Under the pieces are notes generated by a model. The model was not told where the DNA came from, did not search any database, and worked only from the letters and a program-made list of their open reading frames with translations. Both the position numbers and the translations under genes were made by a program. Shown piece by piece: positions 3,207 through 63,256 of a DNA stretch of 64,000 nucleotides; the stretch's first letter is position 1; the number at the start of each line of letters is the position of its first letter. This DNA is from Myxococcaceae bacterium (GTDB taxonomy: Bacteria; Myxococcota; Myxococcia; Myxococcales; Myxococcaceae): assembly GCA_016793095.1 (NCBI GenBank), contig JAEUJQ010000037.1, positions 76,244 through 140,243 of the forward strand, in the 5' to 3' direction.

Positions 3207-3390
3207 CGCGCCTCCTCGATGTGCGACAGCGTGCTACATGGACCCGGACGAGTGCAAACGGGCTGTCAATTCAGCATCTTGCATGGTTGCTGAACGACCT
3301 GATTCGGCTCCCGACGACCCGAACAAGAACAGTCAACGGGGCCTCCGCCGGCCTGGGGTGGCCGCCTGGGAGCACGTGACGCGCTGACGG

Positions 3391-5514
3391 TCACGGCATC
3401 GGGACGAGCGTGCGCACGGACGCGACGCCGCTCGAGGCGCTCAGCTCGAGGTGCCCTCCTTCGAGGCCGTCGTGGGCGAGCACCACGTCTCCGTTGGTCG
3501 CGCGCAGGGTGAGCGTGGTGCGCTCATGACCGAAGTGGGCGACGGACAGGAAGGGAGCGCCCGCCCACTGCACGCGCACGGTGCGGGCGTCGACGCGGGT
3601 CACGCGCACGCCGTCGAGGGACAGGGGCTGCGCGGCCCGGCGCTCCACCACGGCGCCTCCGTGCAGCACCTCGGCCAGCGCGAGCGGCCCCACGTCCTCC
3701 ACCACGCCGAGCAGGTGCACGTCGTCAGACTCCGAGAGGGACGACTCGCGCAGCGACGCGGTGATGACGCGGCCCGAGGCCGAGGTGAGCCGCACGGCCC
3801 ACGCGCTGTCCGTCACCACGGTGCGCGCCGCGAGCGCCTGGTGCAACGGCTCGAGGTGCACCGTCGCCCCGCGCACCACCACCGAGACGATGACGGACGG
3901 CTCGAGCACCATCGCCTGCGGCGGCGTCGGCGCGTAGTCCCCGTCGCGCTCGAGGGCCGTCTGCGCTGCGCGGTACGTGTAGTCGCTGATCCACGTCGGG
4001 TTGCAGTAGCTCATCAGGTCCACGTACTGCGTCGGGTTCATGAACGACTGGCCGTTCCACCCCCACGAGCCGATGCGCGCACCCGCGTAGGGGTACGAGG
4101 GGTCGGTGCCTGCAGCCCCGCCACACGGCGCGTGAGGACGGCCGAAGTTGTGGCCCAGCTCGTGTGACGCGACCCCGACGGAGTCGTCACGGCCGATGGC
4201 GGTGGGCTGGCCGATATAGCCGATGCCAGCGACGCCGAAGGAGCCGACGCGGACGAAGCCGTAGTAGTGCCGCGCGCTCCCGTCGGCCGCGCGCACCTGG
4301 GCGATCTGCGAGAGCAGCGCGCCCCACGCCTGGGTGTCTCCGCCGGTCGGCACGACGCTGGTGGTGTACGGCGCGCGGGTGCGCGACTGCGAGTCGGCGA
4401 AGGGCCACTGCGAGACCATGGTGTCGCGCACGTCGACGACGCTCGAGGTGACGCCGCCCACCACCACCGGCACCGAGGTGAGGTGCAGCACGTTGCGCCG
4501 GCCCACCATCGGCGAGACGCGGCGCTCGTTGTTCTGCTCGTTGGACTCGGGCAGCTGCTCCATGGCGTCGGCCACCACCGCCACCTCGAGGCCCGGCGCC
4601 ACCCACTCGGCCGGCAGCGGCGCGGTGTACTGGCGGTTCACCTCGGCGGGCGCGGTCGGCGGCGCGGCGGGGCCCGTCATGCGCACGCGGCCGAGCTCCA
4701 CACCCTGGCGCCGCGCGACCACCTGCACCACGCACGCGAGGCTCGCGGTGTCCGAGACGATGGACGCAACGACGAGCGCCGGCTTGCCCTCGACGAGCTT
4801 CAGGCTCTCGGCCACCACCGACTGCGCGAAGGCCACGCGCTCGACCCGCACGTCACCGACCGGCTCCACGCCCGTGAGCGTCAGCACCTGGGTCGCCACG
4901 CCCCCGCGCCCGTCGCGCACCGTGAGCGTCACCGTGGTGGGCCCGCGCTGCGTCACCTCGAAGGGCCGCGTCGTCATCGCGCAGGGCACCGGGCCGCCGG
5001 GCGCGAGCTCGCAGGTGAGCGAGGTGGAGTCGGGGTCCACCGCGTCGATGGTGAGCGTCGTGGTGAAGGGCGTCACGCCGGTCGCGCGCGAGGCCGAGAA
5101 GGTCGTGATGCGCGGCGGCTGGTTCGGGGGCAGCAGCACCTCGACTGACACGCTGCGCTCGACCTGCTGGCCTTCGGCGTCGACGACCACGAGCTTGAGC
5201 GTGGCCTGGCCGGGCGTCATCAGGCGCACCTGGGTCGCCGACTCGGAGGAGCAATCGCCGAGCTCGACGCGCTCGCCGGTGGACGTCTCGAGGCGGCAGC
5301 TCAGCACGCCACCACGCGGCGCGACGGCCATCGCCGAGCACGCGAGGGGCACCGTCGCCTCGATCGAGCGGCTCGCGCAGGCGAACGACGTCACCCTCGG
5401 CGTCCCCGCCACCAGGATGACGCCATCGACGGGTCCGGGGTCGGTCTGGAGCAGCGCCGAGCCCTCACACGCGGCGAACGCAAGCAGACACGTCCAGAGC
5501 AGGCGGCGGTTCAT
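3391..5514 (-). CDS. Secreted metzincin-type zinc metalloprotease with N-terminal Ig/PKD-like repeats
   Basis: Signal peptide MNRRLLWTCLLAFAAC, HELGHNFGRPH (HExxHxxGxxH) and a downstream Met-turn (LMSYC). ATG at 5514 is preferred over the TTG at 5532. Confidence 0.8.
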   Translation of the reverse strand: MNRRLLWTCLLAFAACEGSALLQTDPGPVDGVILVAGTPRVTSFACASRSIEATVPLACSAMAVAPRGGVLSCRLETSTGERVELGDCSSESATQVRLMTPGQATLKLVVVDAEGQQVERSVSVEVLLPPNQPPRITTFSASRATGVTPFTTTLTIDAVDPDSTSLTCELAPGGPVPCAMTTRPFEVTQRGPTTVTLTVRDGRGGVATQVLTLTGVEPVGDVRVERVAFAQSVVAESLKLVEGKPALVVASIVSDTASLACVVQVVARRQGVELGRVRMTGPAAPPTAPAEVNRQYTAPLPAEWVAPGLEVAVVADAMEQLPESNEQNNERRVSPMVGRRNVLHLTSVPVVVGGVTSSVVDVRDTMVSQWPFADSQSRTRAPYTTSVVPTGGDTQAWGALLSQIAQVRAADGSARHYYGFVRVGSFGVAGIGYIGQPTAIGRDDSVGVASHELGHNFGRPHAPCGGAAGTDPSYPYAGARIGSWGWNGQSFMNPTQYVDLMSYCNPTWISDYTYRAAQTALERDGDYAPTPPQAMVLEPSVIVSVVVRGATVHLEPLHQALAARTVVTDSAWAVRLTSASGRVITASLRESSLSESDDVHLLGVVEDVGPLALAEVLHGGAVVERRAAQPLSLDGVRVTRVDARTVRVQWAGAPFLSVAHFGHERTTLTLRATNGDVVLAHDGLEGGHLELSASSGVASVRTLVPMP

Positions 5515-5677
5515 GGAGCCCGTCGGGTGCAAGACGAGCGCCCCGCCCCGCGGGCGTGCTTCCGGTCACTTCCGCCTGCCCGCCCTGAGCACCGGCGTGA
5601 TCAGCCCGCGCCCGCGCGCTCCACCGCGGCGGCGTTTCTCGTCGCCCAAGGCGCGGTGTTCACCGGGGTGCACACCG

Positions 5678-7593: not shown

Positions 7594-8406
7594 ATGACAC
7601 CCGGGCGCGCGCGCACGCTCGAAGACTGGCTGGCGGCGCCGGCAGGGCGTTGGTTTCCCGGCCGCTGCTTCGTCACCTTCTGTCCGACGCCGACGCTCTT
7701 CGGCTTCGCGCTGTGGGGCCGGCCGGGCCGCGCCGACATCGAGCGCCTCACCCGTGCGCTGCTCGTCGAGCTGGGCCCCAACGCCGGGCCGCACCGCTCG
7801 CTCGTTGACGTGCGGTTCGTCGAGAGCGTCGACGGCGCCGCCTTCGAGGTGCTGCAGCGGTACGTGCAGTCGCACCACGCGGCGCTGAAGGAGCGCGTCA
7901 CCTCGCTCGCCCTCGTGCGCCCCGCCGGCCTCGTGGGCGCCGTGGTGGCGGGCTTCTACTCGGTCCTCGACTCACCCTACCCCACGAAGGACTTCGGGAC
8001 CCTCGGCGAGGCCGTGCGCTGGCTCGGGCTCGACGCGGACGTGGGCGATGGCGTCGCGGCCCTCGTCGCGGAGCACTCCGGCCAGTCACCCCTGCTCGTC
8101 GACCTGCACGCGTGCCTCGACGCGCTGGGCCCGAAGGCGCCGATGGCCCGCATCGCGAAGCAGCTCGGCGTCGCCACGAGGACGCTCCAGCGCAGGCTCT
8201 CGGAGCAGCGCACCTCGTTCGCGCGCGAGGTGATGGCCCACCGGCTGCGCGCCGCCCGCGCCCGCATGCTCGAGACCGACGAGCCGCTCACCGCCATCGC
8301 CCTCGACTGCGGCTTCGCCTCGCTGCAGCACTTCAGCGCCGCCTTCCGCAAGGCCGAGGGCGCCTCGCCCGCGCAGTGGCGCAAGGCCCGCGGCGCCGGG
8401 CGCTGA
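7594..8406 (+). CDS. AraC family transcriptional regulator
   Basis: C-terminal AraC helix-turn-helix region (IAKQLGVATRTLQRRL...IALDCGFASLQHFSAAFRKAEGASP). Confidence 0.85.
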   Translation: MTPGRARTLEDWLAAPAGRWFPGRCFVTFCPTPTLFGFALWGRPGRADIERLTRALLVELGPNAGPHRSLVDVRFVESVDGAAFEVLQRYVQSHHAALKERVTSLALVRPAGLVGAVVAGFYSVLDSPYPTKDFGTLGEAVRWLGLDADVGDGVAALVAEHSGQSPLLVDLHACLDALGPKAPMARIAKQLGVATRTLQRRLSEQRTSFAREVMAHRLRAARARMLETDEPLTAIALDCGFASLQHFSAAFRKAEGASPAQWRKARGAGR

Positions 8407-17252: not shown

Positions 17253-17813
17253 ATGGCCGTCCCGGGCTTCGAAGTGACTGGCATCTTCGTCGCGGCGTTC
17301 CGCAAGGCGCTTCAGGACCTCGGGCTGCTCGAGCAGGTGACGGCGAAGCTGCAACCCTCGACGAGGGCCGTTCTCGACGCGCCACACAGCAAGCGCACCC
17401 ACGACGCCGGTGTGCTCAAGGACCTCTCCGACACGCTGTACGCGGTCGCGGGGAACGAGGTCTCTCAGCAGCACGCCTACCTGATGGCGCGGGACTCGCT
17501 GGGGAAGATCCTCATCCCCATGTTCAAGGTCGCCCTCGCGCTCACCGGGCGAACCCCAGCCACCCTGCTCTCCCGCGTCCCCGACTCGGTGCGCCAGGCC
17601 CTCCGCGGGGTGAAGGCCACCTGGAACCCCGACGGTCCGAACGCTGGCACGCTGCAGATCGACTACCCCGAGCCGGTGACGGCCGTCGCCGCGGTGACCT
17701 GGCGCGGCACGCTGAGGTTCCTCTTCGAGCTGGTCGAGGGCACGCCCGCGCACATCGAGCGAATCGACCTCACGAACGAGCTGCGCACCATCGTCATCGT
17801 CGTGCGCTGGTGA
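17253..17813 (+). CDS. Hypothetical protein, TIGR02265/DUF2378-like (Myxococcales paralogous family); family assignment tentative
   Basis: Very high GC3 and a globular sequence from MAVPGFEVTG. The upstream part of the ORF is junk. Confidence 0.7.
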   Translation: MAVPGFEVTGIFVAAFRKALQDLGLLEQVTAKLQPSTRAVLDAPHSKRTHDAGVLKDLSDTLYAVAGNEVSQQHAYLMARDSLGKILIPMFKVALALTGRTPATLLSRVPDSVRQALRGVKATWNPDGPNAGTLQIDYPEPVTAVAAVTWRGTLRFLFELVEGTPAHIERIDLTNELRTIVIVVRW

Positions 17814-17913
17814 CGGTCCGCCGGGTGTGGCCGAGGCTGTTACAGGTGACCCGCCTGCTCACACGCCTGCCATCCGGCGGTTGAAACCACGTTGATCTTC
17901 CAGCGCACCGAGC

Positions 17914-17928
17914 TGGCACCCGCGTTGC
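17914..17928 (+). promoter_or_regulatory. Sigma-54 (RpoN) promoter, -24/-12 elements TGGCAC-N5-TTGCT
   Basis: Exact consensus with correct spacing, 37 bp upstream of the ATG of the S8 protease gene. Confidence 0.5.
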
Positions 17929-17964
17929 TCACGCACCGTCATCCCCCGCCACACGGAGACGGTC

Positions 17965-20900
17965 ATGAAGACACGATACACGCTGATGCCCGGGCTCATC
18001 GCCCTCTGCGCCTGCAGCACCCTGCCGCCGTCCTCGGAACCGAAAGGCGCCGATGCGACGCTCACCTTGAACGTCCCTCAACGCGTCATCGCCTCGGCCG
18101 ACGCGCCTGCCCGCTTCACGGTGCTGGTGTCCGGCAGCGCGGAGCCCGTCCGGCTCACCATCGAAGGCGCGCCGGCTGGCGTGACGACCCAGCTCGACCA
18201 GCCAGAGACGACGACGTCGTCGGTGGTGACGGTGAAGGTCGAAGCCGGCACCTCGCCGATGACGGCGGAGCTGACGGTGCGCGCGACGGTCGGCACCGTG
18301 GAGGCGAAGAAGAGCGTGCGTCTCGACGTCGTGGGCGCGCCGAAGCTGCCCACCCGCGCCCCCGAGATCAGCGTCACGCTCGACCAGCTCTTCTACGCCG
18401 CGGGCCAGCGCGTGGAAGCCGTCGTGGACTTCGGCGCCCTCACCCCGCCCTCGACGGTGACCCTCTTCCTGTCTTCGACGGACTCGCGGGACGCGGAGCG
18501 ACTCGTGCTCGAGCGCGGGCCGGGCAACACCTTCCGGACGGCGGCGGGTGTGCCGACGTCCGCGCTCACGACGGGTGAGGGCGCGCCAAACGACGGCACG
18601 CTGCAGCTCCACCCGGGCGACAGCTTCTACGCGCTGTACTTCGTCGACCCCTCGCTCCCGAACCTCGAGGTCGGGCTCGTGTCCGACCTCGCGTTCCTCG
18701 ACGGCCCAGCGCGCGCCGAGACCCCGACCCACCTCGACAGCCGGCTCGCCCTGACGCCCGACGAGGCCTCGGCGATGAGGCCCATCGCGACGCTGCTGCG
18801 CAAGAACGAGCTGCCGCTGCAGCTCGCCGCTCGGGAGCTCATCGCCACCCCGTCCAGTCAGCGAGAGCTCGACCGCATCGTCGCCCTCACCGGTGGGCGC
18901 GTGGTGGATCAGCAGCCGGTGGGCCTCGACGGCACCGCCCTGGCCTACCTGCTCGAGGTGCCGACGGAGCGGGTGACCGCCGAGCGGCTCAGCATCATGC
19001 GGCACTTCGTCGGCGAGCTCGGCGAGCTCGCGTCCAGTCGCCCTGAAGGCCTCGGCGTGTACGCCCTGGCTCTGGCCGCGCGCCTCGAGGGGCTGCCAGT
19101 CACCGTCAACCCCAGGCTCGGCAGCCACGCGGCGCCCACCACCATCGAGGGTGAGCCGCCCAGCGACAACATGAGGGCGCTGGGCCGCGCCGGAGACACG
19201 GGCCCCTGCCTGCCAGGCGCCGACGCCGGCAACCCCTGCGTGCGGAACGCGCCGGCTCTGTGGACGTGGCTGTCGCTCATGGACCGGGACACCGAGCGGG
19301 TGCGCGTCGGCGTGCTCGACTACGGCTTCGCGCCGAACGCGGACTTCCGCCCGGACGCGGACGGTGGCTTTCGTGAGTGTGACATGACGGGCGGCGCAGC
19401 ACGGTGTGCCCCGGGGGCAGCGCGGGCGGCGCCGAACGCGGGCGCCTTCGGCGGCGACCGGGTGTGGCACGGCACCGGCTCGGTGACGGCGCTCGGCGGG
19501 GTGGTGAACGACGGCTTCGGCGGCGCTGGCACGGGTGGCCAGGTCGCGGTGCCGATGATGTACCGGTACGACAACCTCAACTTCGTCTTCAACATCGGCC
19601 GGGGCGTGCGACAGGCAGTGAACGACGGCGCGTCGGTCATCAACATCAGCGCCGGCTACCCGTGCAGCGTCGCGGTGAACGTCGGCCCCGACCTCGACCT
19701 CTGCACCGTCGCGGGCCGCGCTGCCATCTGCGCGGTGGTGAGCTTCGGAGTGCTGGGCGCCGCAGCCCTCGTCTGCCAGATCGACCCGCTCCTCTCGTGC
19801 GCGGTCGCCAACGGCATCGCGGCGACGGCAGTGACGGCGTGCGTGGGTACGCTCCAGACGAGCTTCGCGCTGGGAGACCCGCGCGACCCGATGCGCTCGG
19901 GCATCGTCTACGCGAAGAGCCGCGGCGTGCCGGTGGTGGTGTCGGCGGGCAACGCCTACCCGAGCAGCGTGCTGCCCGACGTGATTCGCGACTACGTCAA
20001 CCTGAACGACCGCAACACCAGCCGCTGGGGCGTGGTGCCCGCCTCGTTCCCTGAGGTCATCACGGTGGGCGCCGTCAACACCGCCCTCGACAACCAGGAG
20101 TTCCTCGGGCCCCGCGTCGACGTCTGGGCGCCCATCTTCACGCGCTACGCCCGGCCCTCGACTGACGACCCGGCGTCGGCGACGGTGTTCGACACCTTCA
20201 GCGGCACCTCGGACGCGGCGCCCTACACCACCGGCGTCGTGGCCGCGATGCAGGCCGCGAACCCGCGCCTCAACCCTGCCACCACGACGCTCACGGCCGA
20301 GGAGCGGCGCACCCTCACCGAGCGGGTGAAGGCGCTGTTGCGGGACACCGCGTGGACGAACAGCCAGCTCGTCTCGTACGGCTATCAGCACCAGCCGACC
20401 GAGCGCCCCCGGCTGCTCAACCCCCTCGGCGCGGTGAAGGCGGCCGCTCGAGGCGCGCTGCCCGACCTGCTGGCCCTGGGGTACGACGACCAGCTCAACT
20501 TCGAGGAGCACACCACCGTCGATGACCTGCCGTCCCAGGCGCGCGTCATCTCGGTCGGCTCGTGGGTGACCGGGTCCATCGTGGGCATCCCTGCCGTGCG
20601 CCTCGCCTCACCGCCGACCGATGTCGACTCTTTCCGGGTGCGGGGCGTGACGTCCGGGCGGGAGATGGTCTCGCAGGAGCTGCGCCTGCGGGTGCTGGCG
20701 GGCGTCACCGAGCTGCCGGTGCTCGTCGTCGATCGCGCCCTCGTGCAGTTCGAGCGTGTGTCCACGACGCGGCTGGGCGACGCCGAGTGGGAGCTCGTGT
20801 ACCGCTTCTTCACCCGCGAGCCGGACCTGACGTTCGGCGTGACGGCGGCGCCAGGCGACGACTTCGCCTACCGGCTGCGGCTCGAACCACCGGTGCGCGC

Positions 20901-21510
20901 GACGCCGTCGGTCCGAATCACTGAGCCTGCGGTGGCGATGTCGCGGATCTGCGTCGGTCAGTCGTTCGCGCTCAACGGCCGCGTCTCGTACCCGCCCACC
21001 ACTTTCACCGAGACGATGGGGCGCTGGCTCATCGATGGCGTCGTGGTGCGGAACACCGCCGACCGCTTCACGCCCACCTTCACCACCGCCGGTCTGCGCC
21101 GGATCGTCCTCGAGAGCGGAGGGGCCATGGACTCCATCACCGTCGAGGCGGTCCCGTGCTCGGTGTTCGTACGCATGGCAACTCCGGGCGGGAACGTCGC
21201 GGACTATCCATCGGGCTCGAACTCGTATTTGAGCGTGCCCCTGGGAGGGGAGCTGCGGGACGTGTCGGGCAACCTCTTGCCGACGGCGGGCTACACGTTC
21301 GAGTGGGTGACGGATCGCGCCGACGCGCAGCCGGGTGGACCGACGTCAGGGACCCAGGTCGTCGCGACGGGCAGCAGCGCCACGGGCCTCTTCTACGCGG
21401 TGCCGGGCGAAGCGGCGACCGAGCACCGGCTCGTCCTCATCGTCCGGCAGGGCGGCGTCGAGGTCGGTCGCTCGATCACGCGCCTCATCACCGTGCTGCA
21501 GCTCATCTGA
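17965..21510 (+). CDS. Subtilisin-like (S8) serine protease lipoprotein, 1181 aa
   Basis: Lipoprotein signal MKTRYTLMPGLIALCAC. S8 catalytic motifs HGTGS and GTSDAAPYTTG. GGAG RBS. Confidence 0.9.
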   Translation: MKTRYTLMPGLIALCACSTLPPSSEPKGADATLTLNVPQRVIASADAPARFTVLVSGSAEPVRLTIEGAPAGVTTQLDQPETTTSSVVTVKVEAGTSPMTAELTVRATVGTVEAKKSVRLDVVGAPKLPTRAPEISVTLDQLFYAAGQRVEAVVDFGALTPPSTVTLFLSSTDSRDAERLVLERGPGNTFRTAAGVPTSALTTGEGAPNDGTLQLHPGDSFYALYFVDPSLPNLEVGLVSDLAFLDGPARAETPTHLDSRLALTPDEASAMRPIATLLRKNELPLQLAARELIATPSSQRELDRIVALTGGRVVDQQPVGLDGTALAYLLEVPTERVTAERLSIMRHFVGELGELASSRPEGLGVYALALAARLEGLPVTVNPRLGSHAAPTTIEGEPPSDNMRALGRAGDTGPCLPGADAGNPCVRNAPALWTWLSLMDRDTERVRVGVLDYGFAPNADFRPDADGGFRECDMTGGAARCAPGAARAAPNAGAFGGDRVWHGTGSVTALGGVVNDGFGGAGTGGQVAVPMMYRYDNLNFVFNIGRGVRQAVNDGASVINISAGYPCSVAVNVGPDLDLCTVAGRAAICAVVSFGVLGAAALVCQIDPLLSCAVANGIAATAVTACVGTLQTSFALGDPRDPMRSGIVYAKSRGVPVVVSAGNAYPSSVLPDVIRDYVNLNDRNTSRWGVVPASFPEVITVGAVNTALDNQEFLGPRVDVWAPIFTRYARPSTDDPASATVFDTFSGTSDAAPYTTGVVAAMQAANPRLNPATTTLTAEERRTLTERVKALLRDTAWTNSQLVSYGYQHQPTERPRLLNPLGAVKAAARGALPDLLALGYDDQLNFEEHTTVDDLPSQARVISVGSWVTGSIVGIPAVRLASPPTDVDSFRVRGVTSGREMVSQELRLRVLAGVTELPVLVVDRALVQFERVSTTRLGDAEWELVYRFFTREPDLTFGVTAAPGDDFAYRLRLEPPVRATPSVRITEPAVAMSRICVGQSFALNGRVSYPPTTFTETMGRWLIDGVVVRNTADRFTPTFTTAGLRRIVLESGGAMDSITVEAVPCSVFVRMATPGGNVADYPSGSNSYLSVPLGGELRDVSGNLLPTAGYTFEWVTDRADAQPGGPTSGTQVVATGSSATGLFYAVPGEAATEHRLVLIVRQGGVEVGRSITRLITVLQLI

Positions 21511-21582
21511 TGGCTCCGAGCGCGCTGGCGGCGACCTCGTCGTGCGTGGTGAGCCGACCACGCCCGTGAGAGAGTCGCCGCC

Positions 21583-24456
21583 GTGCGCGCCGACGTGTCG
21601 GTCCAGCTGGTGAACCCACCCGCGGCCCCGCCTCCCGGGTCGTCGCCGCGGGCGCTGGGCCAGGGTCGCCTCGTGACCGCGTCGGGCTGGGAGGTGCCGA
21701 CGCTGAAGGACCCGCGGCTTCCGTTCGGCCTGCTGCTCTTCTCGTACGCCGTCGCGGGCTTCACCTTCCTCGGCTTCAACCGGCAGTGGTGGCAGATGGC
21801 CATCATCATGGGCAGCGCGTCGCTGCTCGAGGTGGCGCTGAGCTGGCTGCTGCACCGGCGGAAGATCGTCCCCGTCTCGGCCTTCATCACGAGCTGCTCG
21901 CTCGCCATCCTCCTCAACTACTCGCACCACTCGTGGGTGCTGCTGTTCCCCGTCTTCCTCGCCATCGGCTCGAAGTACGTGCTCACCGTCGAGGGCCGGC
22001 ACGTCTTCAACCCCGCCATGTTCGGCGTGGCGGTCTCGCTGCTCGTCTCGCGCGAGTGGATCACCGCGGCGCCGGCCTACCAGTGGGCCGGTGGTGACGT
22101 GACCATCAGCGTCTTCATCGCCACCGCCGCGCTCATGCTCTTCCTCTTCCGCGTGGGGCGCGGGCCGCTGGTGGTGAGCTTCCTCGTGCTCTACGCCCTG
22201 CAGACGGCGCTGCGCGCGTACATCATGCGGCACCACCTGCCGTGGCAGACGCTCTTCTTCGGCACCCTCGAGTCGCCGCCCTTCTACCTCTTCACGTTCT
22301 ACATGATCACCGACCCGGCCACGTCGCCGGCCGGCACACGCGGCCAGGTGCTGGTCGCCCTCGCGCTCGTCGTCATCGACGGCGTGCTGCACTTCAAGGA
22401 GAGCGTCTACACGTTCTTCTACGCGGCGCTGACCGTGGGCGTGGTGCGCTTCCTGTGGGCGCACGGCGCGCTGCTGGTGAAGGGTGGCGCGGCCCGGCTC
22501 GCGCGGCTCTTCGACCGGGACTCCTTCCTGCGCGTGGGCGCCGTCGGGGGCCTCGGCGTCGGGCTGCTCACCGCGTGGACGACCGTGCTCGCGCCGCTCG
22601 ACGCGCCGGCCGACGTGGGCTTCCGCTTCGAGCGGGTGGACGTGAAGCAGGCGGGGCTGCACTCCGAGCTGGGCACGACGCTGACCGAGGTCGACCCGCG
22701 CCTGCGCCACGTCGCCAAGTGGGTGCTCTCGGTGGGCGACGCCATCGTGACCGGCGACGTGGACGGAGACGGCTTCACCGACGTGCTGCTGACGCACCCG
22801 CTCGCGACCGCGAAGGACCGCGTCGGGCTGTACCGGAACCGGGGGGACTTCACGTTCGAGCGGCTGCCCCTTCCGGCGCTCGAGCCCTTGATGAACGACC
22901 CGAAGACGCACGGGCTCGCGAGCGGCGGCGTCTTCATCGACGACGACGGGGACGGCGATCAGGACCTGCTCCTCACCGTGGCGTTCGGCAAGACGCGCCT
23001 CCTGCGCAACCGCCTGAAGGAGACCGGCGCGCTCTCGTTCGAGGACGTGTCGCTGGCAGCGGGCCTCGACGCGCACACCGTGTCACTCGCGGCGACCTTC
23101 TTCGACTTCGACCAGGACGGCGTGCTCGACCTGCTCGTCACCAACGCGCTCACCACGCACCTGCCGGACTACGAGGCGCCGACGCCCCTCAACGTCTTCG
23201 CCTTGCCGCCGCCGGCCTCCGAGGGCGACCGCCGCATGTTCCGCTTCATGCACAACGGGTGGCACGACGCCGACAACGGCGGGGTGAACCACCTCTACCG
23301 GGGCCGCGGGGACGGCTCCTACGAGCGCCTCGACGAGAAGACCTGGGGCCTGCCCGAGACCCACTGGACGCTGGCCGTCGGCACCCAGGACTTCAACCAC
23401 GACGGCTTCACCGACCTCTACCTCGCCAGCGACTTCGGCCCCGACGACGTCTACCTGAACGAGGGCGGCCGCCACTTCCGCCGCATCGCGGGGCCGCGCT
23501 TCGGCGACGTCGGCAAGGACACCTACAAGGGCATGAACGTCTCCATCGCCGACTTCGATCGCGACGGCTTCTCCGACGTCACCGTCTCGAACGTGCACCA
23601 CGCGCTGCAGTCCGAGGGCAGCCTGCTGTGGATGGTGCGGCCCTCGAAGAGCGACCCCTTCGTGCCGACCTTCACCGACGAGGCGACGCAGCGGGGCATG
23701 TTGAACGAGCGGCGCTTCGGCTGGGGCGCGGCGGCGGGCGACCTCGACCTCGACGGCTGGGACGACCTCGTGCAGGCGAACGGCATGGTGGACACGCGCC
23801 TCGACCCCGAGCTCCTGACGCCGAGCCGCGAAGGCTTCGAGTGGCCCTGGAACAAGGGGCGCACCGACTACTGGTACGTGAACCAGAAGCTCATGCAGTC
23901 GGGGCCAGACATTCACACGTACGCCGACCGCTGGGGCGACATCCGCGGGCGCCACATCTACGCGAACGAGGCGCGGCGCGCGTACCTGAACCTCGGCCCC
24001 GGCAAGCCCGGCCAGTTCGTCGACGCGGCGAAGGCCCTCGGCGTGGACGACCCGGACAACTCCCGCGGGGTCTTGCTCGCCGACTTCGATCGCGACGGAG
24101 ACCTGGACCTGCTCATCAGCAACCAGCACGGCCCGGCGTCGCTCTACCGCAGCACGCTGCGCTCGAAGCCTGCTCGGCCGCACTTCGTCGCGCTCGAGCT
24201 GCACGGAGCCAGCGGCAACGGGGCGGCGGTGGGCGCGGTGGTGACGGTGAGCGCGACCGTCGAGGGACGTCCACTGACTCAGCGGCGTGAGGTGCAGCTC
24301 ATGGCCGGCTTCGCGGCGCAGGCCGAGCGGCGCCTCCTCTTCGGGCTCGGTGACACGGGTGAGCGACAGGTCGAGGTCACCGTGCAGTGGCCACGCGGCG
24401 ACCGTCGTTCCCTGCGGCTCGACGTCGATGCGCTCCACGTGGTGCGCGAGGAGTAG
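21583..24456 (+). CDS. Polytopic membrane domain fused to FG-GAP/VCBS repeats and a C-terminal ASPIC/UnbV domain (CRTAC1-like)
   Basis: About eight N-terminal TM helices with an RnfD/NqrB-like FNPAMFG motif. Repeated DxDGDGxxD FG-GAP loops. C-terminal LMAGFAAQAERRLLFGLGD (UnbV/ASPIC). GTG start. Confidence 0.85.
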   Translation: MRADVSVQLVNPPAAPPPGSSPRALGQGRLVTASGWEVPTLKDPRLPFGLLLFSYAVAGFTFLGFNRQWWQMAIIMGSASLLEVALSWLLHRRKIVPVSAFITSCSLAILLNYSHHSWVLLFPVFLAIGSKYVLTVEGRHVFNPAMFGVAVSLLVSREWITAAPAYQWAGGDVTISVFIATAALMLFLFRVGRGPLVVSFLVLYALQTALRAYIMRHHLPWQTLFFGTLESPPFYLFTFYMITDPATSPAGTRGQVLVALALVVIDGVLHFKESVYTFFYAALTVGVVRFLWAHGALLVKGGAARLARLFDRDSFLRVGAVGGLGVGLLTAWTTVLAPLDAPADVGFRFERVDVKQAGLHSELGTTLTEVDPRLRHVAKWVLSVGDAIVTGDVDGDGFTDVLLTHPLATAKDRVGLYRNRGDFTFERLPLPALEPLMNDPKTHGLASGGVFIDDDGDGDQDLLLTVAFGKTRLLRNRLKETGALSFEDVSLAAGLDAHTVSLAATFFDFDQDGVLDLLVTNALTTHLPDYEAPTPLNVFALPPPASEGDRRMFRFMHNGWHDADNGGVNHLYRGRGDGSYERLDEKTWGLPETHWTLAVGTQDFNHDGFTDLYLASDFGPDDVYLNEGGRHFRRIAGPRFGDVGKDTYKGMNVSIADFDRDGFSDVTVSNVHHALQSEGSLLWMVRPSKSDPFVPTFTDEATQRGMLNERRFGWGAAAGDLDLDGWDDLVQANGMVDTRLDPELLTPSREGFEWPWNKGRTDYWYVNQKLMQSGPDIHTYADRWGDIRGRHIYANEARRAYLNLGPGKPGQFVDAAKALGVDDPDNSRGVLLADFDRDGDLDLLISNQHGPASLYRSTLRSKPARPHFVALELHGASGNGAAVGAVVTVSATVEGRPLTQRREVQLMAGFAAQAERRLLFGLGDTGERQVEVTVQWPRGDRRSLRLDVDALHVVREE

Positions 24457-27652: not shown

Positions 27653-29431
27653 CTACAGGCGCAGCTTCTTCACCGTCGTCTGGCCGGCCTTGATCTCCAC
27701 CTCGATGGAGCTGTCGAGGCCCGCCTCGGAGTTGGTCAGCTTGAGCAGGTGAGTCCCGACGGGCACCGGCACGTCCACCAGCGGCGTGTCGCCCAGCTTC
27801 TTGCCTCCGAGGAACACGCTCGTCCACGGCGTCGTCTTGAGCGTGAGCTTGCCCAGCTGCTTCGGCTTCACCGCGACGGTCTTCGGCTTCTCGGCGCTGG
27901 TGTCGGCGACGGGCGGCGGCGATGGAGCCAGCGCCACCTCGACCATCAAGCGCTCCCCGGGCTTCGGCAACGGTACGGTGCGTGACGCTGGCAGGTGTCC
28001 CTCGAGGGTGGCCTCGAGCAGGTGGTCGCCCGGCGTGAGCGAGTCCAGGGTGACGGGCGCGGTGCCCACGCTCTTCCCGTCGACGGTGATGCTGGCCCCT
28101 GGCGGCGAGCTGCTGATGACGAGGACGGGCGGAGCCGGTGGAGGCGGCGTCGGCGCGACGATGGGCTGCACGACCGGGGGTGGAGGCGCCGGGTTTCGGG
28201 CAGCCAACAACGCGAAGGTCAGCACCGCGATGACGATGGACCCCACCGCGCCACCGACGAAGACCGGCACCATCGAGCGACGTCCGCCGGTGACCGGCTC
28301 AGCGCGGCTCTTCGAGGTGACGCCCGAGCCCGCCGACTGCGCGAGCCGCCGCACGTTGGCGACGCCGTTGGGGGTCATCTCGGCCCGCATCGCCGCCTCG
28401 ATGAGCTGCCGTCGGTCGTGAATGCGCCGGGCGAACAGCGCGCGCAGGTAGTCGGCGAGGTCGCTCGTCGTGACCGTGAGGCCTCGGCGGCCGAGCCAGC
28501 CCTCGAGCGCGTCCTGAAGCTCGCGGGCGCTCTGGTAGCGCTCCTCCTTCCGCGGAGCCATCGCCTTCAAGACGATCTGCTCGAGCTCGGGGTCGAGGTC
28601 GGCGCGACGGTCACGCGGCTTCGGCAGGTTTCCGTGCGCGATGGCGCCGAGCACCTGGGTGTCTTCCATCTGGGGGAAGAGCCGGCCACGCGTCACCAGC
28701 TCGAAGAGCACGATGCCGAGCGCGAAGACGTCGCTGCGGGCGTCGAGCTGCTCGCCCCTCGCCTGCTCGGGCGACATGTAGCCGAGCTTGCCCTTCAGCT
28801 TGCCCGAGGTGGTGTGCTGGCTCGCGAGCTTCGCCACCCCGAAGTCGAGCACCTTGAGCCCGCCGTCGAAGGTGGCGAACAGGTTCTGCGGCGAGATGTC
28901 GCGGTGAACGATGCCGAGCGTCCTGCCATCGACGCCCACGCGGGTGTGTGCGTAGTGCAGCCCGTCGGCGGCCCAGGCCACCATCCGCACGGCGTGGTGG
29001 TCGAGCAGCGGGAGCTGGTGCTTGATGCCCATGCGCCGCACGACCGCCAGGTTCTCGCCGTCGAGGTACTCCATGACGAGGTAGAGCGACTGGCCGGCCT
29101 CGCCGAGATCGAAGATCTGCACGACGTGCGGGTGGTTGAGCTGCGCCGCCAGCCGCGCCTCGGTGAGGAACATGTCCACGTGCTCGGGGTCCGACTCGAG
29201 CGCGTCAATCATGCGCTTGATGACGACCAGCCGCTCGAAGCCCTTGGGGCCCGACTGCCGCGCGAGCCAGATCTCAGCCATGCCTCCCTGGGCGATCGGC
29301 GTCATCAACAGGTACGAGCCGACCGTCGTCCCGGGCTCCCAGCCGGAACGTGTCTCGGGAAGGCTCACGCTGCTCTCTCGTGCGAAGGGCGCTGCATCGC
29401 GGGTAGGTGAGTGTGGTGGCGGGGCACTCAC
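27653..29431 (-). CDS. Ser/Thr protein kinase with TM segment and C-terminal PEGA domains
   Basis: Hanks kinase motifs (GGMAEIW, VVIKRM, HRDISPQN, DFG, GKLGYMSPE). One TM helix. Two PEGA-like repeats. GTG start. Confidence 0.9.
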   Translation of the reverse strand: MSAPPPHSPTRDAAPFARESSVSLPETRSGWEPGTTVGSYLLMTPIAQGGMAEIWLARQSGPKGFERLVVIKRMIDALESDPEHVDMFLTEARLAAQLNHPHVVQIFDLGEAGQSLYLVMEYLDGENLAVVRRMGIKHQLPLLDHHAVRMVAWAADGLHYAHTRVGVDGRTLGIVHRDISPQNLFATFDGGLKVLDFGVAKLASQHTTSGKLKGKLGYMSPEQARGEQLDARSDVFALGIVLFELVTRGRLFPQMEDTQVLGAIAHGNLPKPRDRRADLDPELEQIVLKAMAPRKEERYQSARELQDALEGWLGRRGLTVTTSDLADYLRALFARRIHDRRQLIEAAMRAEMTPNGVANVRRLAQSAGSGVTSKSRAEPVTGGRRSMVPVFVGGAVGSIVIAVLTFALLAARNPAPPPPVVQPIVAPTPPPPAPPVLVISSSPPGASITVDGKSVGTAPVTLDSLTPGDHLLEATLEGHLPASRTVPLPKPGERLMVEVALAPSPPPVADTSAEKPKTVAVKPKQLGKLTLKTTPWTSVFLGGKKLGDTPLVDVPVPVGTHLLKLTNSEAGLDSSIEVEIKAGQTTVKKLRL

Positions 29432-41162: not shown

Positions 41163-41345
41163 CGACCTCACCATCGGCGACGTCCACTGGCTGAAGGTGG
41201 CCGAGCGCGAGGTGAACCGCGTGCAGCGCCCTCGTGGCCGAGCCGACCGCACCTGGACTGCTGCACGCCGGGTGGCAGCACGCGGCAGACGACCTGCCCG
41301 GCACGCTCGCCGCGTTGAAGGCGGACGAGGCCATCGTGTCCAGCA
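41163..41345 (+). pseudogene. Degenerate, frameshifted partial copy of codons about 37021-37205 of the spermidine-synthase-like gene
   Basis: Nucleotide and peptide similarity: AVWRHAADDLQGTLAALKSDEAIGSE versus AGWQHAADDLPGTLAALKADEAIVSS, and DVDWVKVAERRAQISRVPLPRG versus DVHWLKVAEREVNRVQRPRG, with a frame switch near 41235. Similarity is lost after 41345. Confidence 0.5.
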
Positions 41346-41476
41346 CGCCGCGCGACGCCGAGCGGGCCGTACACGGCGACCGTCACCGTCCCCTTGAGGG
41401 AGCGGCGGCCGAGGGGTGCAGCCTGAGCGCCTGGGCAGGCGGGGTAGCTCCGGTTCGGTGGCGCGGGCGGCGGTCT

Positions 41477-41854
41477 TCACCGCGACGCCGGGGGCCGCAG
41501 GTCGGCGAGCGCCTGGTCGACGTCGATGGTCGGGTCCGGCGTGAGGCTGATGACGAGGTCCTGCCTGCTGGGGACGACCTCGACGCGTACGCCCACCGTC
41601 GCCGGGCGCACCAGCGCTGTCCTGCGCCACAGCCGCCAGCCTCCATCGGGCGTCATCGCCTCGAGCTGGCCGAGCCACGCCCCCGGCACGCCACCCGACA
41701 CGACACGCCACCGCAGGAGCGAGGGGCTGCACGCCTCGAGGCGCTCGCCGGGCGCGTCGCTCAACGCGGTCAGCTCCCAGCCCTTCCATGGCTCGCAGGG
41801 CGCGACCTTCGGACAGCCGGACAAGGCGGGGACGAGCAGGAGCCAGCGCATCAT
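41477..41854 (-). CDS. Small lipoprotein (125 aa)
   Basis: MMRWLLLVPALSGC lipobox at the protein-like 3' end of an otherwise antisense-to-pepN ORF. Weak RBS. Confidence 0.5.
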   Translation of the reverse strand: MMRWLLLVPALSGCPKVAPCEPWKGWELTALSDAPGERLEACSPSLLRWRVVSGGVPGAWLGQLEAMTPDGGWRLWRRTALVRPATVGVRVEVVPSRQDLVISLTPDPTIDVDQALADLRPPASR

Positions 41855-41899
41855 CGAGACGATGCCGCACCGGCGGCCGGTGCTGCTACATCTCCCGCC

Positions 41900-44566
41900 A
41901 TGCTGAAGGACGCCACGCCGAAGACCATTCGCCTGTCCGAGTACCGCCCGCCCGACTTCGCCATCGAGCGCGTCGCCCTCACCTTCGACCTCGACGTGGA
42001 CCGCACCGAGGTCGAGGCCGAGCTCGTCTTCCGACGCCTCGGCGGCCTGGGTCCGCTCGTGCTCGACGGCGCCGACGACGCCGAAGGTTCGGGCCAGCTG
42101 CTCTCGCTGCGCATCGACGGCGTGGAGCCACCGGCCAGCGCGTTCACCGTCTCCGAGAACGGGCTCACCCTGCACGCCCCGAAGGACCGGTTCACGCTGA
42201 CGACCCGCCGCCGCCTGACGCCGTCGAAGAACAAGAGCCTCGAGGGCCTCTACGCCTCGGCGAGCGGGCTCTACACGCAGTGCGAGGCCGAGGGCTTCCG
42301 GAAGATCACCTGGTACCTCGACCGCCCCGACGTGATGAGCGTCTTCACCGTCACCCTGCGCGCCGACCCCGAGCGCTTCCCGGTGCTGCTCAGCAACGGC
42401 AACAAGGTGAGCGAGCGCGACGAGGTGGTGAACGGCCAGCGCCGGCGCGTGGCCGTGTGGCACGACCCGTTCAAGAAGCCCTGCTACCTCTTCGCCGTCG
42501 TCGCGGCGGACCTGGTGGCGCGCAAGGGCTCGTTCACCACCAGGAGCGGCCGCGCCGTCGAGCTCAACGTCTGGGTGCAGCCGCACGACCTCGACCAGAC
42601 GGCGCACTGCCTCGACAGCCTCGTCAAGTCGATGAGCTGGGACGAGACGCGCTTCGGCCGCGAGTACGACCTCGACGTCTTCAACCTCGTCGCCGTGTCG
42701 GACTTCAACATGGGCGCGATGGAGAACAAGGGCCTCAACGTCTTCAACACGAAGTTCGTGCTCGCCCGCCCCGACACCGCGACCGACGTGGACTTCGCGA
42801 ACATCGAGGGCGTCGTCGGCCATGAGTACTTCCACAACTGGTCGGGCAACCGCGTCACCTGCCGCGACTGGTTCCAGCTCTCGCTGAAGGAGGGCTTCAC
42901 GGTCTTCCGCGACCAGGAGTTCTCGAGCGACGTCGGCTCGCGCGCGGTGAAGCGCATCGAAGAGGTGCGGCGCCTGCGCAGCCTGCAGTTCCCCGAGGAC
43001 CAGGGACCGACGGCGCACCCGGTGCGACCCGATAGCTACGTCGAGATCTCCAACTTCTACACCGTCACCATCTACGAGAAGGGCGCCGAGGTGGTGCGCA
43101 TGTACCTCACGCTGCTCGGCGAGGAGGCCTTCCGCCGCGGCACCGACCTCTACTTCTCGCGGCACGACGGCCAGGCCGTGACGACCGACGACTTCCTCGC
43201 GTGCATGGCCGAGGTGAGCGGCCGCGACTTCCGCCAGTTCAAGCGCTGGTACTCGCAAGCCGGGACGCCGCGGGTGAGCGCGCGCGGAGCCTGGGACGAG
43301 CCCACGAAGACGTGGACGCTCACGCTCTCGCAGACGGTGCCGCCGACGCCGGATCAGCCGAGGAAGGAGCCGATGCACATCCCCGTCGTCACCGCACTGC
43401 TGGGGCGCGACGGCAAGCGGCTGCCGCTGGTCGTGAACGGCGAGCGGCGCGGCGTCGAGACCGTGCTCGAGCTCACCACCGACGAGGAGCGCTTCGCCTT
43501 CACCGGCCTGTCCGAGAAGCCGGTGCCGTCGCTCCTGCGGGGCTTCTCGGCGCCGGTGCAGCTCGAGACTGACGACGACGAGGCCGCCATCCTCTTCCGG
43601 CTCGCTCACGACGACGACGCCTTCAACCGCGTCGAGGCCGGCCAGGAGCTGTTCTTCCGGCACCTCTTCGCGAACGTCGCCGCGCTGCAGGCGGGCGGGG
43701 CACTGACCGAGCCTTCGACGGCGCTCGTCGATGCCGTGAAGACCGCGCTCGCGACCTCGCTCGAGCAGGGAGACCCGGCGTTGCTCGCCCTCGCGCTCTC
43801 GGTGCCAGGCATCGACCTCATCGGCGACCGGCTGCCGTGGGCGGACTACGCGAACGCCTTCCTCGCGCGCGAGCACCTCGTCACGGCGCTCGCCTCCACG
43901 CTCAGGCCCCTCATCAGCGACGTTGACGCGCACCTCTCGAAGGGCCTCGACGGAGCGCCGTACCGCTTCACCCCCGACGACGTGGGCCGCCGCAGCCTGC
44001 GCAACCTGATGGTGTCGTGGCGCGCGCGCCTGCCGGACGGAGAGCACCACGTCGTGGGCCACCTCCGCCGCGCCGGCTGCATGACCGACACCCAGGCCGC
44101 CCTCGCGCTGCTCGCGAACACCGAGAGCCGCGCACGCGACGAGGCGTTCGCCGCCTTCTACGCGCAGTGGAAGGGCGAGGCGCTCATGGTGGACAAGTGG
44201 TTCACCATGCAGGCCATGAGCACGCGGGCGCGGGCGCTCGACGATGTGCTCACGCTCACGACCCACGAGGCCTTCACGCTCGAGAACCCCAACCGCGCGC
44301 GCTCGGTCATCGCGTCGTTCGGCATGGCGAACCCGCTGCGCTTCCACGAGGCGTCGGGGCGCGGCTACGTCTTCCTGGCCGAGCAGGTGCGGGCCCTCGA
44401 CGTCTTCAACGCGCAGATCGCCGCCCGGTTGATGACGCCGCTGACGCGCTGGAAGCGGCAGGACCCGCCGCGGCAGGCGCTCATGAAGCGCGAGCTGCAG
44501 CGCATCCTCGACCGGGAGGGCTGCAGCAAGGACGTGTACGAGATCGCGACGAAGTCGTTGGCCTGA
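41900..44566 (+). CDS. pepN: Aminopeptidase N (M1 family)
   Basis: GAMENKGLNVFN and HEYFHNWSGN motifs with a PepN-like N-terminus (IRLSEYRPPDF). 888 aa. Confidence 0.92.
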   Translation: MLKDATPKTIRLSEYRPPDFAIERVALTFDLDVDRTEVEAELVFRRLGGLGPLVLDGADDAEGSGQLLSLRIDGVEPPASAFTVSENGLTLHAPKDRFTLTTRRRLTPSKNKSLEGLYASASGLYTQCEAEGFRKITWYLDRPDVMSVFTVTLRADPERFPVLLSNGNKVSERDEVVNGQRRRVAVWHDPFKKPCYLFAVVAADLVARKGSFTTRSGRAVELNVWVQPHDLDQTAHCLDSLVKSMSWDETRFGREYDLDVFNLVAVSDFNMGAMENKGLNVFNTKFVLARPDTATDVDFANIEGVVGHEYFHNWSGNRVTCRDWFQLSLKEGFTVFRDQEFSSDVGSRAVKRIEEVRRLRSLQFPEDQGPTAHPVRPDSYVEISNFYTVTIYEKGAEVVRMYLTLLGEEAFRRGTDLYFSRHDGQAVTTDDFLACMAEVSGRDFRQFKRWYSQAGTPRVSARGAWDEPTKTWTLTLSQTVPPTPDQPRKEPMHIPVVTALLGRDGKRLPLVVNGERRGVETVLELTTDEERFAFTGLSEKPVPSLLRGFSAPVQLETDDDEAAILFRLAHDDDAFNRVEAGQELFFRHLFANVAALQAGGALTEPSTALVDAVKTALATSLEQGDPALLALALSVPGIDLIGDRLPWADYANAFLAREHLVTALASTLRPLISDVDAHLSKGLDGAPYRFTPDDVGRRSLRNLMVSWRARLPDGEHHVVGHLRRAGCMTDTQAALALLANTESRARDEAFAAFYAQWKGEALMVDKWFTMQAMSTRARALDDVLTLTTHEAFTLENPNRARSVIASFGMANPLRFHEASGRGYVFLAEQVRALDVFNAQIAARLMTPLTRWKRQDPPRQALMKRELQRILDREGCSKDVYEIATKSLA

Positions 44567-59819: not shown

Positions 59820-59823
<4 letters not shown>
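59719..59823 (-). CDS. Candidate 34-aa single-TM micropeptide
   Basis: GTG overlaps the M28 peptidase TGA (GTGA). VSVGGDLTDTWWIVARGVLVFVIVLVSAALSPTT. Confidence 0.25.
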
Positions 59824-62606
<2,783 letters not shown>

Positions 62607-62629
62607 CACGTCGCTCCTCTTCGCTCGGG

Positions 62630-63256
62630 TCAGGGGGCCGGCAGCTTCGCCCAGCGCATCTGGATGACGGCGGGCGTGCCGGCCTTGTCGTAGAAGCTCT
62701 CGAGGGCGACCTTGAAGTACTGCTGCTCGTCGCTCCTCACCACGTAGACGATGGGGCGCCCGAAGAGCGCATGAATCGTCGGGTCGTACCGGTACCAGGT
62801 CTCGGCGTTCTCGAAGACGGTGTCGGGCTCGGTGTTGGCGTCGTCGCCGTCGGGCTGGTCGTACAGGTAGCCGGCGTCGGGCGCGCGGGTGACGTCGGCG
62901 AAGCCCGCGTCGACGAGGGGAATGGCCGCCACCCCGCCGTCGCCGTTCACCCCACCGCGCAGCCGCACGCGCTGGCGGCGGAACGCGATGTCCCACTTCG
63001 CGTCGACGAAGGGCGCCTCTTCGCCGGTGTCGAAGTCGAAGGCGACGAAGACCTGGTCGCTGAGGGCCTGCACGATGGTGAGGTTGCCGCCGTCGACCGC
63101 GGTGGTGGCGAACTTCGGCTTCGGCGGCGCGCCGCCGTCCACCTGCACGCCCGCGTCCACGGCCACCTGCTCGTCGGGGCCCGGCGTCAGCTCGAGCGTC
63201 TCGCAGGCCGTCACCGTCACCACCGTCAGCACCGGGAGCAGGAAGAGAGGCTTCAT
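62630..63256 (-). CDS. Lipoprotein (208 aa), possible receptor-associated binding protein
   Basis: MKPLFLLPVLTVVTVTAC lipobox. 4 nt after the TonB-dependent receptor stop. Confidence 0.7.
   Translation of the reverse strand: MKPLFLLPVLTVVTVTACETLELTPGPDEQVAVDAGVQVDGGAPPKPKFATTAVDGGNLTIVQALSDQVFVAFDFDTGEEAPFVDAKWDIAFRRQRVRLRGGVNGDGGVAAIPLVDAGFADVTRAPDAGYLYDQPDGDDANTEPDTVFENAETWYRYDPTIHALFGRPIVYVVRSDEQQYFKVALESFYDKAGTPAVIQMRWAKLPAP

Follow-up and report, generated by a model that had tools for sequence, protein, structure and literature searches.

A predicted sigma-54 promoter with a conserved upstream palindrome at the gene for a large S8 lipoprotein protease of the Myxococcaceae

Background

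We have analyzed a candidate sigma-54 (RpoN) promoter in a 64-kb stretch of genomic DNA from an uncultured member of the Myxococcaceae (contig JAEUJQ010000037.1; the whole stretch of 64,000 nucleotides is called the window below). It lies directly in front of a gene for a lipoprotein protease of the S8 family, 1181 amino acids (aa) in length. In the enteric glnAp2-NtrC system, a -24/-12 promoter is served by two neighbouring dyad sites that lie on one face of the helix, from which an AAA+ ring of activator reaches the polymerase by DNA looping. At sigma-54 promoters the GC element of the -12 region standardly occupies positions -13/-12. Activators of this class, the enhancer-binding proteins (EBPs), include in Myxococcus xanthus a set with an FHA domain, reportedly described by Jelsbak, Givskov and Kaiser in 2005 (PNAS 102:3010).

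Binding sites have been defined for several M. xanthus regulators. The sigma-54 consensus of this organism is TGGCACG-N4-TTGC(T/A), and Nla28 recognizes 8-bp half-sites, CT[C/G]CG[C/G]AG, at its targets actB, nla28 and pilA (PMC9765219). NmpR binds GCGCA-N5-TGCGC, present as two sites, at the mxan_4236 and pilR promoters (PMC11841059), and PexR binds tandem CACCG-N6-CGGTG palindromes at the katB promoter (PMC12754779). Genomes of Myxococcota are rich in EBPs, and in the Myxococcia the functions under sigma-54 control are enriched for those of the envelope and of secretion (PMC12316311).

The core in the window agrees with the M. xanthus consensus at 11 of 12 positions (consensus from PMC9765219). 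The support for the promoter is good, but as a gene switch it is of a known and ordinary type, which is common in the phylum.

Results and discussion

The core motif in the window

The features around the core are as follows.

17914 to 17929, + strand: sigma-54 core promoter, TGGCACccgcgTTGCt, recognized by direct reading, by its uniqueness in the window and by invariant TGG and TTGC alignment columns
17938 to 17942, + strand: predicted transcription start, at about 17940 with a leader of about 25 nt, placed by taking the GC element as -13/-12
17956 to 17960, + strand: Shine-Dalgarno sequence GGAGA, 4 nt before the ATG, by direct reading
17965 to 21510, + strand: gene for the 1181-aa S8 (subtilisin-family) lipoprotein protease, from its translation, the Pfam Peptidase_S8 match and a third-position G+C content (GC3) of 0.92

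The original prediction, made from the sequence of the window, was of a consensus -24/-12 element with exact spacing before the S8 protease gene. Direct reading confirms this: the element reads TGGCAC-ccgcg-TTGC-T, with GG at 17915-16 and GC at 17927-28 in the exact GG-N10-GC spacing. It occupies part of a 151-bp gap between genes (17814-17964) and points in the direction of the following gene, whose ATG is separated from the C of TTGC by 36 nt; a co-oriented open reading frame (ORF) ends at 17813. GGAG or GGAGG is found at the place equivalent to the Shine-Dalgarno sequence in five of the orthologous loci described below (L001, L002, L003, L005 and L007).

TGGCAC-N5-TTGC has a single exact match on the two strands of the window, for a mean of 0.14 in dinucleotide shuffles. 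Since 12 of 100 such shuffles contain at least one exact match, and weaker versions of the motif are not enriched (42 matches with up to two mismatches for 60 expected, and five matches to TGG-N8-TTGC for 4.7 expected), the lone match is by itself only mildly unlikely. It is noteworthy for its position and is not part of a motif-rich background.

The shuffle count lends some weight to a reading in which the core is a chance match or a relic, and the gene is transcribed from a sigma-70 or extracytoplasmic function (ECF)-type promoter or by read-through from upstream. The scan of 17600-18100 found no sigma-70-like promoter, using an E. coli consensus that may miss myxobacterial or ECF promoters, which are poorly modelled by it. 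The same scan found no terminator on the + strand, so that no clear one separates the co-oriented upstream gene from the promoter, and in locus L005 a gene for an ECF-type sigma factor lies about 1 kb upstream. Rfam and tRNA scans of the window gave no matches. Against a chance origin stand the retention of the core, with its GG-N10-GC spacing, in eight further lineages whose flanks are randomized, the composite footprint that it forms with an enhancer-like palindrome, and the linkage of EBP genes to the protease gene. With this evidence, set out in the following sections, we consider a chance match or relic very improbable.

Conservation upstream of orthologous genes

Fourteen loci were examined first, the window and L001-L013; L125 was added later, from an EBP homologue. 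TGG-N8-TTGC precedes the protease orthologue in 10 of the 14 (the window, L001-L008 and L010), that is, in nine loci of eight lineages besides the window, at protein identities from 73% down to 40%. The -24 element and the distance from TTGC to the start codon are as follows.

Window: TGGCAC, 36 nt to start
L001, L002/L006 and L004: 69-70% protein identity, TGGCAC, 39-45 nt to start
L003: 73% identity, TGGCGA, 46 nt to start
L005: 71% identity, TGGCAT, 40 nt to start
L007: 56% identity, TGGCGC, 45 nt to start
L008: 49% identity, TGGTTC, 14 nt to start
L010: 40% identity, TGGCGC, 13 nt to start

N-termini proposed by the gene caller were too short in three loci, and starts were reset to ATG 1523 (L008), GTG 3923 (L005) and probably ATG 3977 (L004), which brings back the lipoprotein signal in each. 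By chance the core would be expected in 1-2.6% of cases per locus, as judged from dinucleotide shuffles of 200-nt upstream regions.

The genes upstream of the orthologues are unrelated from locus to locus (NYN, cellulase, YCII, HEAT, RVT_1, ABC1 and others), and therefore the conservation of the core belongs to the protease gene. The DNA around the conserved elements is hardly more alike between loci than random sequence. When nine lineages were aligned with MAFFT, no column was invariant other than those of TGG, TTGC, the start codon and the half-sites of a putative upstream activating sequence (UAS), described in the next section. The RVT_1 neighbour, in L007, is a 218-aa reverse-transcriptase gene (3212-3868) directly upstream of the protease promoter, and may be retron-like.

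In the three most distant orthologues the core ends 13-15 nt before the ATG (L008, 1494-1525; L010, 3973-4003; L125, 6425-6457). The transcription start predicted for them is at most about 3 nt away from the ATG, so that their mRNA would have no leader or hardly any. For sigma-54 promoters this is unusual.

A palindrome at enhancer distance

When the upstream regions were anchored on TGG, a second conserved element emerged.

17846 to 17862: proximal UAS palindrome, GTGACCCGCCTGCTCAC, of the form GTGA-N9-TCAC, a conserved footprint centred at about -86
17827 to 17843: possible degenerate distal UAS, GTGGCcgaggctGTTAC, read by eye, with 8 of 10 positions of GTGAC-N7-GTCAC

Exact copies of GTGA-N9-TCAC precede TGG by 68 bp in the window, L001, L002, L004, L005 and L006, by 67 bp in L007, by 58 bp in L010 and by 57 bp in L125; palindromes with one mismatch are found at 70 bp in L003 and 80 bp in L008. 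The distance to the core is thus constant, at 67-68 bp, in five lineages. The other spacings (57, 58, 70 and 80 bp) are about one helical turn shorter or longer, save for a 2-bp offset in L003. The 51-nt spacer between the two elements is 31-57% identical between lineages, compared with about 29% for random sequence of this GC content. In the protease promoters only GTGA and TCAC are conserved; the fifth base varies (C, A or G, with the half-sites in the same orientation).

Exact palindromes occur at a background rate of 4.8e-5 per bp. A composite, defined as the core plus a palindrome with at most one mismatch at 55-85 bp, turns up in at most 0.1% of the shuffles of a locus, but 9 of 13 non-redundant loci have it. 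Throughout the window and L001-L013, composites are confined to these promoters, one more L010 promoter and a single site that is probably due to chance. The last is on the minus strand (TGGCTT-N5-TTGC, 79 bp spacing; about 6677-6770 in L002 and 7776-7869 in L006) and was judged to be chance; it lies inside a lipoprotein coding sequence of the + strand. Its position is just downstream of the protease gene, and it would point antisense toward the 3' end of that gene.

A clear second palindrome is present 21-22 bp upstream of the proximal copy in L001, L002, L003, L005 and L010. The corresponding distal copy of the window, 19 bp upstream, is weak and could be chance. Predicted sites near -86 and -107 would take the standard enhancer position and give a classic enhancer layout. 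The original prediction had called for a search for EBP sites upstream of the core and had set the presence of the motif in orthologous promoters as a condition. Both were found: a conserved palindrome at enhancer distance, tandem in most lineages, and the core in 10 of 14 loci, in part also in L125, for a chance of 1-2.6% per locus. No convincing match to an integration host factor (IHF) site was seen by eye in the spacer. A generic repeat finder, run on 17600-17965, reported small chance repeats and one inverted repeat, and missed the 4-5 bp half-sites. This inverted repeat, of 10 nt (CCGCCGGGTG / CATCCGGCGG, 17818-17827 / 17871-17880), flanks the UAS palindrome and might serve the upstream gene as a terminator.

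On another view, the palindrome would serve a conventional repressor or activator as its operator, or would belong to an RNA structure or terminator of the gene upstream, and the core would be served by a different, so far unrecognized UAS. RNA from the intergenic region 17800-17915 does fold more stably than shuffled sequences (z = -2.96), and in L125 the palindrome extends over the stop codon of the gene before it. Its distance is fixed to the core, however, and not to the upstream genes, which vary. The tandem copies stand about two helical turns apart and the spacing variants differ by about one turn, as befits an enhancer read from one face of the helix, and palindrome plus core recurs at a second gene beside an EBP gene in L010. 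We therefore regard an operator or an upstream RNA structure as improbable and the palindrome as a putative enhancer of the sigma-54 core.

FHA-type enhancer-binding proteins as candidate activators

The window contains no EBP gene, as the original prediction had stated: a phmmer search with a genuine EBP against all six-frame ORFs was negative, and neither a GAFTGA motif nor an RpoN box was found. In other genomes such a gene adjoins the protease gene. A gene with FHA, Sigma54_activat and HTH_8 domains was found in three loci.

L010: FHA-EBP gene 1.7 kb downstream of the protease gene, convergent
L008: FHA-EBP gene 88 nt downstream, same strand, cut by the contig end
L007: FHA-EBP gene 22 nt downstream, convergent, cut by the contig end

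The fourth case, L125, was reached independently, from an EBP homologue (P0043) picked for its similar DNA-binding tail. It encodes an S8 protease of 1176 aa, a full-length match to the window protein at 40% identity. The EBP gene follows the protease gene on the same strand after a gap of 15 nt, and upstream of the protease gene GTGAAC-N5-GTTCAC precedes TGGCAC by 57 bp. The EBPs of L010 and L125 match Pfam families PF00498 and PF00158, with a weak match to PF02954 in L010 only, and GAFTGA is present in those of L008 and L010. The NCBIfam models for NifA, NorR and NtrC match the central domain, all below their equivalog cut-offs. The helix-turn-helix (HTH) tail is conserved among the FHA-EBPs. 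Homologues occur in several metagenome-assembled genomes (MAGs) of the Myxococcaceae, and P0086, at 57% identity, is an M. xanthus relative of the linked EBPs.

In L010 a second promoter of the same design lies between the protease and FHA-EBP genes (7751-7895). It consists of a palindrome, TGTGAACgtggagGTCACA, a core 80 bp downstream (TGGCAAggcgtGTGC, of the TGGCAA-N5-GTGC type), a Shine-Dalgarno sequence and an ATG, and it precedes a gene for a 439-aa beta-propeller lipoprotein, which is likely a second member of the regulon.

The FHA-EBP subfamily is proposed as the cognate activator because its genes stand beside the protease gene in four genomes, in differing arrangements. Binding of these proteins to GTGA-N9-TCAC is predicted from this linkage and from the second promoter of L010. 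EBP-dependent control, as originally proposed, gains support from the conserved core, the upstream palindrome and the EBP genes beside the protease gene in these four loci. For the window we lean, with some reserve, toward an FHA-type EBP encoded elsewhere in the genome. An attempt to name it by its recognition helix failed: VDRVYLYRL(M/L)RK is near-invariant in the subfamily and no NCBIfam equivalog was reached. Because the paralogues share this helix, the orthologue in the window genome is not singled out without the full assembly.

A Ser/Thr kinase gene of the Pkinase-PEGA type (27653-29431, - strand) lies 6 kb downstream of the protease gene and could feed an FHA-type EBP. It carries no weight as evidence, such kinases being abundant in the phylum.

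The same palindrome class at other genes

A metagenome collection was scanned for the pattern GTGAC-N8-TCAC, followed after 50-52 nt by TGGCAC-N5-TTGC, and 111 contigs matched. As the pattern itself fixes the spacing, the scan is uninformative on spacing preference. No S8 orthologue was present in the 111 contigs; the JGI contigs of L004 and L005 are evidently not part of this collection. Three kinds of gene recur downstream of the matches: type IV pilin genes (11 loci), genes for a protein of about 80 aa (13) and operons for a sensor and a response-regulator EBP (3-4). The palindrome at these loci is a strict GTGAC-N7-GTCAC, including a G that the pattern does not demand.

Pilin-type loci include L021, L022, L029, L032, L037, L042, L048, L100, L114, L118, L119 and L124. 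A gene for a PilR-like response-regulator EBP stands beside the match in L022, L048, L080 and L100. The recognition helix of the pilin-adjacent EBPs reads SFRSLRYRLAK, compared with VDRVYLYRLMRR in the FHA-EBPs. In these GC-rich bacteria, GTGAC-N7-GTCAC at pilin genes could be the site that PilR binds. The palindrome class appears to serve more than one EBP subfamily, and sequence alone cannot name the activator.

These loci raise the alternative of a real sigma-54 promoter with another activator, a PilR-like or other response-regulator EBP that reads GTGAC-N7-GTCAC, so that the protease would belong to a pilus or motility regulon or to that of a two-component system. The 11 pilin loci, with a response-regulator EBP adjacent in the four cases named, and the sensor operons with the same promoter design speak for it, as does the lack of an FHA-EBP gene beside the protease gene in the window and in its closest relatives. 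On the other side, the pilin sites are strict at the fifth base whereas the protease sites vary there, and the shared spacing is not independent evidence. Linkage in four genomes favours the FHA type, and the second palindrome promoter of L010 is also beside an FHA-EBP gene. We consider control by a response-regulator EBP rather unlikely, and retain an FHA-type EBP as the candidate.

Further loci of the scan share this promoter design. Thirteen GC-rich contigs (L052, L065, L075, L077, L084, L096, L099, L101, L103, L108, L115, L122 and L123) encode the conserved protein of about 80 aa, in most cases starting MDD. Its gene has a TGGCACG-N4-TTGCT promoter, three half-sites (GCGTCACAATGTGACGC then ...GTCAC) and a conserved spacer block 'gcaagt..ctgatt'. 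In L044, L045 and L053 a gene for a putative sensor of 481-529 aa is followed by a response-regulator EBP gene, behind a promoter with a tandem palindrome (CTGAC-N7-GTCAC and GTGAC-N8-TCAC) and TGGCACG-N4-TTGC; this looks like an autoregulated two-component operon. L033 (GC 0.58) has two composites 639 bp apart (191-273 and 830-912) before two unrelated small genes, and L060 and L121 are grouped with it.

The protease and its gene

Peptidase_S8 (PF00082) matches the protein at residues 446-800 (E 2e-16; 60.5 bits for a Pfam cut-off of 21.8), and the Asp, His and Ser motifs of the family are visible in the translation as VLDYG, HGTGS and SGTSDAAPY. The window has a G+C content of 70.8%, and its GC3 map agrees with the gene calls. 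The N-terminus, MKTRYTLMPGLIALCAC, is a lipoprotein signal peptide with a lipobox, whose cysteine is kept in all orthologues (..LCAC in the window; ..GC, ..AAC or ..VAC in the others). Because the lipobox is conserved, the protease is considered a lipoprotein, and it is probably anchored in the envelope or at the surface. The "large secreted protease" of the original prediction is thus indeed a large S8 protease, and "secreted" should read lipoprotein.

The window protein is identical to P0001, an NCBI entry from a Myxococcaceae MAG annotated as an S8 family serine peptidase. The family is small, with 13 proteins at E <= 1e-30 among 5.8 billion searched; none of these matches is an orthologue from a cultured Myxococcus. 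A sequence search of the PDB gave marginal similarity to the catalytic domain of PCSK9 and nothing stronger.

One further feature follows the stop codon.

21520 to 21590, + strand: GC-rich hairpin, candidate terminator or mRNA 3' stabilizer, from an RNA fold of -54 kcal/mol

None of 200 shuffles was as stable as this hairpin (z = -5.2), which has no U-tract and so was missed by the simple terminator scan. Similar hairpins are found 3' of the protease gene in L010 and L008. The stable hairpin and the downstream neighbours, which vary among the orthologous loci, indicate that the protease gene is probably monocistronic. The earliest start available to the downstream FG-GAP/ASPIC gene, GTG 21583, falls within the hairpin.

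Three other large peptidase genes are present in the window (3391-5532, - strand; 41234-44566, + strand; 59820-62996, - strand). Their products are M66/reprolysin-like, M1 aminopeptidase and M28 with PD40, PA and PDZ domains, and none of the three genes is preceded by a match to the sigma-54 core.

Proposed mechanism

We regard it as highly probable that the element is a functional sigma-54 promoter for the S8 lipoprotein protease gene, activated from the conserved palindrome or palindromes. The motif, its conservation, the palindrome at fixed spacing and the linkage of EBP and protease genes in other genomes are the observations on which this reading stands. In the proposed sequence of events, sigma-54 RNA polymerase would bind the -24/-12 element and be held as a closed complex. 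Dimers of an AAA+ EBP would bind GTGA-N9-TCAC near -86 and possibly the weak second copy about 20 bp upstream. The EBP ring would then assemble, contact the polymerase by looping of the spacer of about 50 bp, and open the promoter by ATP hydrolysis. From a start at about 17940, the transcript would have some 25 nt of leader, which includes the GGAGA ribosome-binding site. As for the signal, an FHA input domain would imply control through phosphorylation by a Ser/Thr kinase. The original prediction had suggested, as a possibility, developmental or nutritional control.

Several points weigh against this reading. The core is absent upstream of the distant homologues of L009 (43% identity), L011 and L012 (35-36%, low-GC organisms) and L013, and L125 keeps the -24 element (TGGCAC) but has a degenerate -12 element (GTGG). 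Neither an EBP gene nor rpoN is present in the window, and L001-L006 have no adjacent EBP in the flanks fetched, so that the EBP assignment rests on more distant genomes. FHA-EBP paralogues are very many, with thousands in the Myxococcota, and their recognition helices are nearly identical; the palindrome class is moreover shared with pilin genes beside PilR-like EBPs of a different helix, and the EBP is not uniquely identified. The co-oriented upstream gene could add to expression by read-through. Dependence on rpoN and the transcription start, like the binding EBP and its signal, are predictions from sequence.

A wider reading can be offered only tentatively, as a possibility. An undescribed module might extend across uncultured Myxococcota, in which an FHA-EBP, with Ser/Thr kinases as its presumed input and acting through its own GTGA-N9-TCAC enhancer, switches on a surface S8 lipoprotein protease of about 1180 aa, with leaderless sigma-54 transcripts in the deep branches. 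The EBP might also activate itself, through the protease-EBP tandem seen in L125 and L008, and the beta-propeller lipoprotein of L010. Such a module would, if real, be moderately interesting.

Myxobacteria encode dozens of sigma-54 activators, few of which have known DNA sites or targets. The present analysis provides a promoter with a conserved footprint and a fixed geometry, together with candidates for the enhancer sequence and, by gene linkage, for an activator of the FHA type. For an uncharacterized family of large lipoprotein proteases, which may act in predation or in remodelling of the cell surface, activator, site and target are proposed together in a form that is open to direct test. 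It adds an example and leaves the understanding of sigma-54 control unchanged.

Comparison with described systems

The EBPs of L007, L008, L010 and L125 share with the FHA-EBPs of M. xanthus the order of FHA domain, AAA+ domain with GAFTGA and Fis-type HTH. No specific orthologue or known site can be assigned among them, and in the window genome the EBP gene is not adjacent to the protease gene. The promoters of NmpR, PexR and Nla28 in M. xanthus resemble that of the window in belonging to the same phylum, in their core consensus and in having at least two dyad sites tens of bp upstream of -24, which are mostly intergenic, as in the window. The window palindrome, GTGA-N9-TCAC (ideally GTGAC-N7-GTCAC, 17 bp), is unlike the sites of these three regulators, none of whose consensus sequences matches the conserved footprint upstream of the core. 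Its target, a large S8 lipoprotein protease, also differs from those of the characterized M. xanthus sigma-54 promoters.

The metagenomic pilin promoters are similar to the protease promoter in having GTGAC-N7-GTCAC 50-52 nt upstream of TGGCAC-N5-TTGC. They differ in that their palindromes are strict and the adjacent EBPs are response regulators with another helix. Finally, the window shares with glnAp2-NtrC the -24/-12 core, the adjacent dyad sites and the proposed looping by an AAA+ ring. The UAS would lie closer in the window (about -86 and -107) than at glnAp2 (-108 and -140), and the input domain is probably FHA rather than the receiver of NtrC. The target is a protease in the window and a nitrogen-assimilation gene in the case of glnAp2-NtrC.

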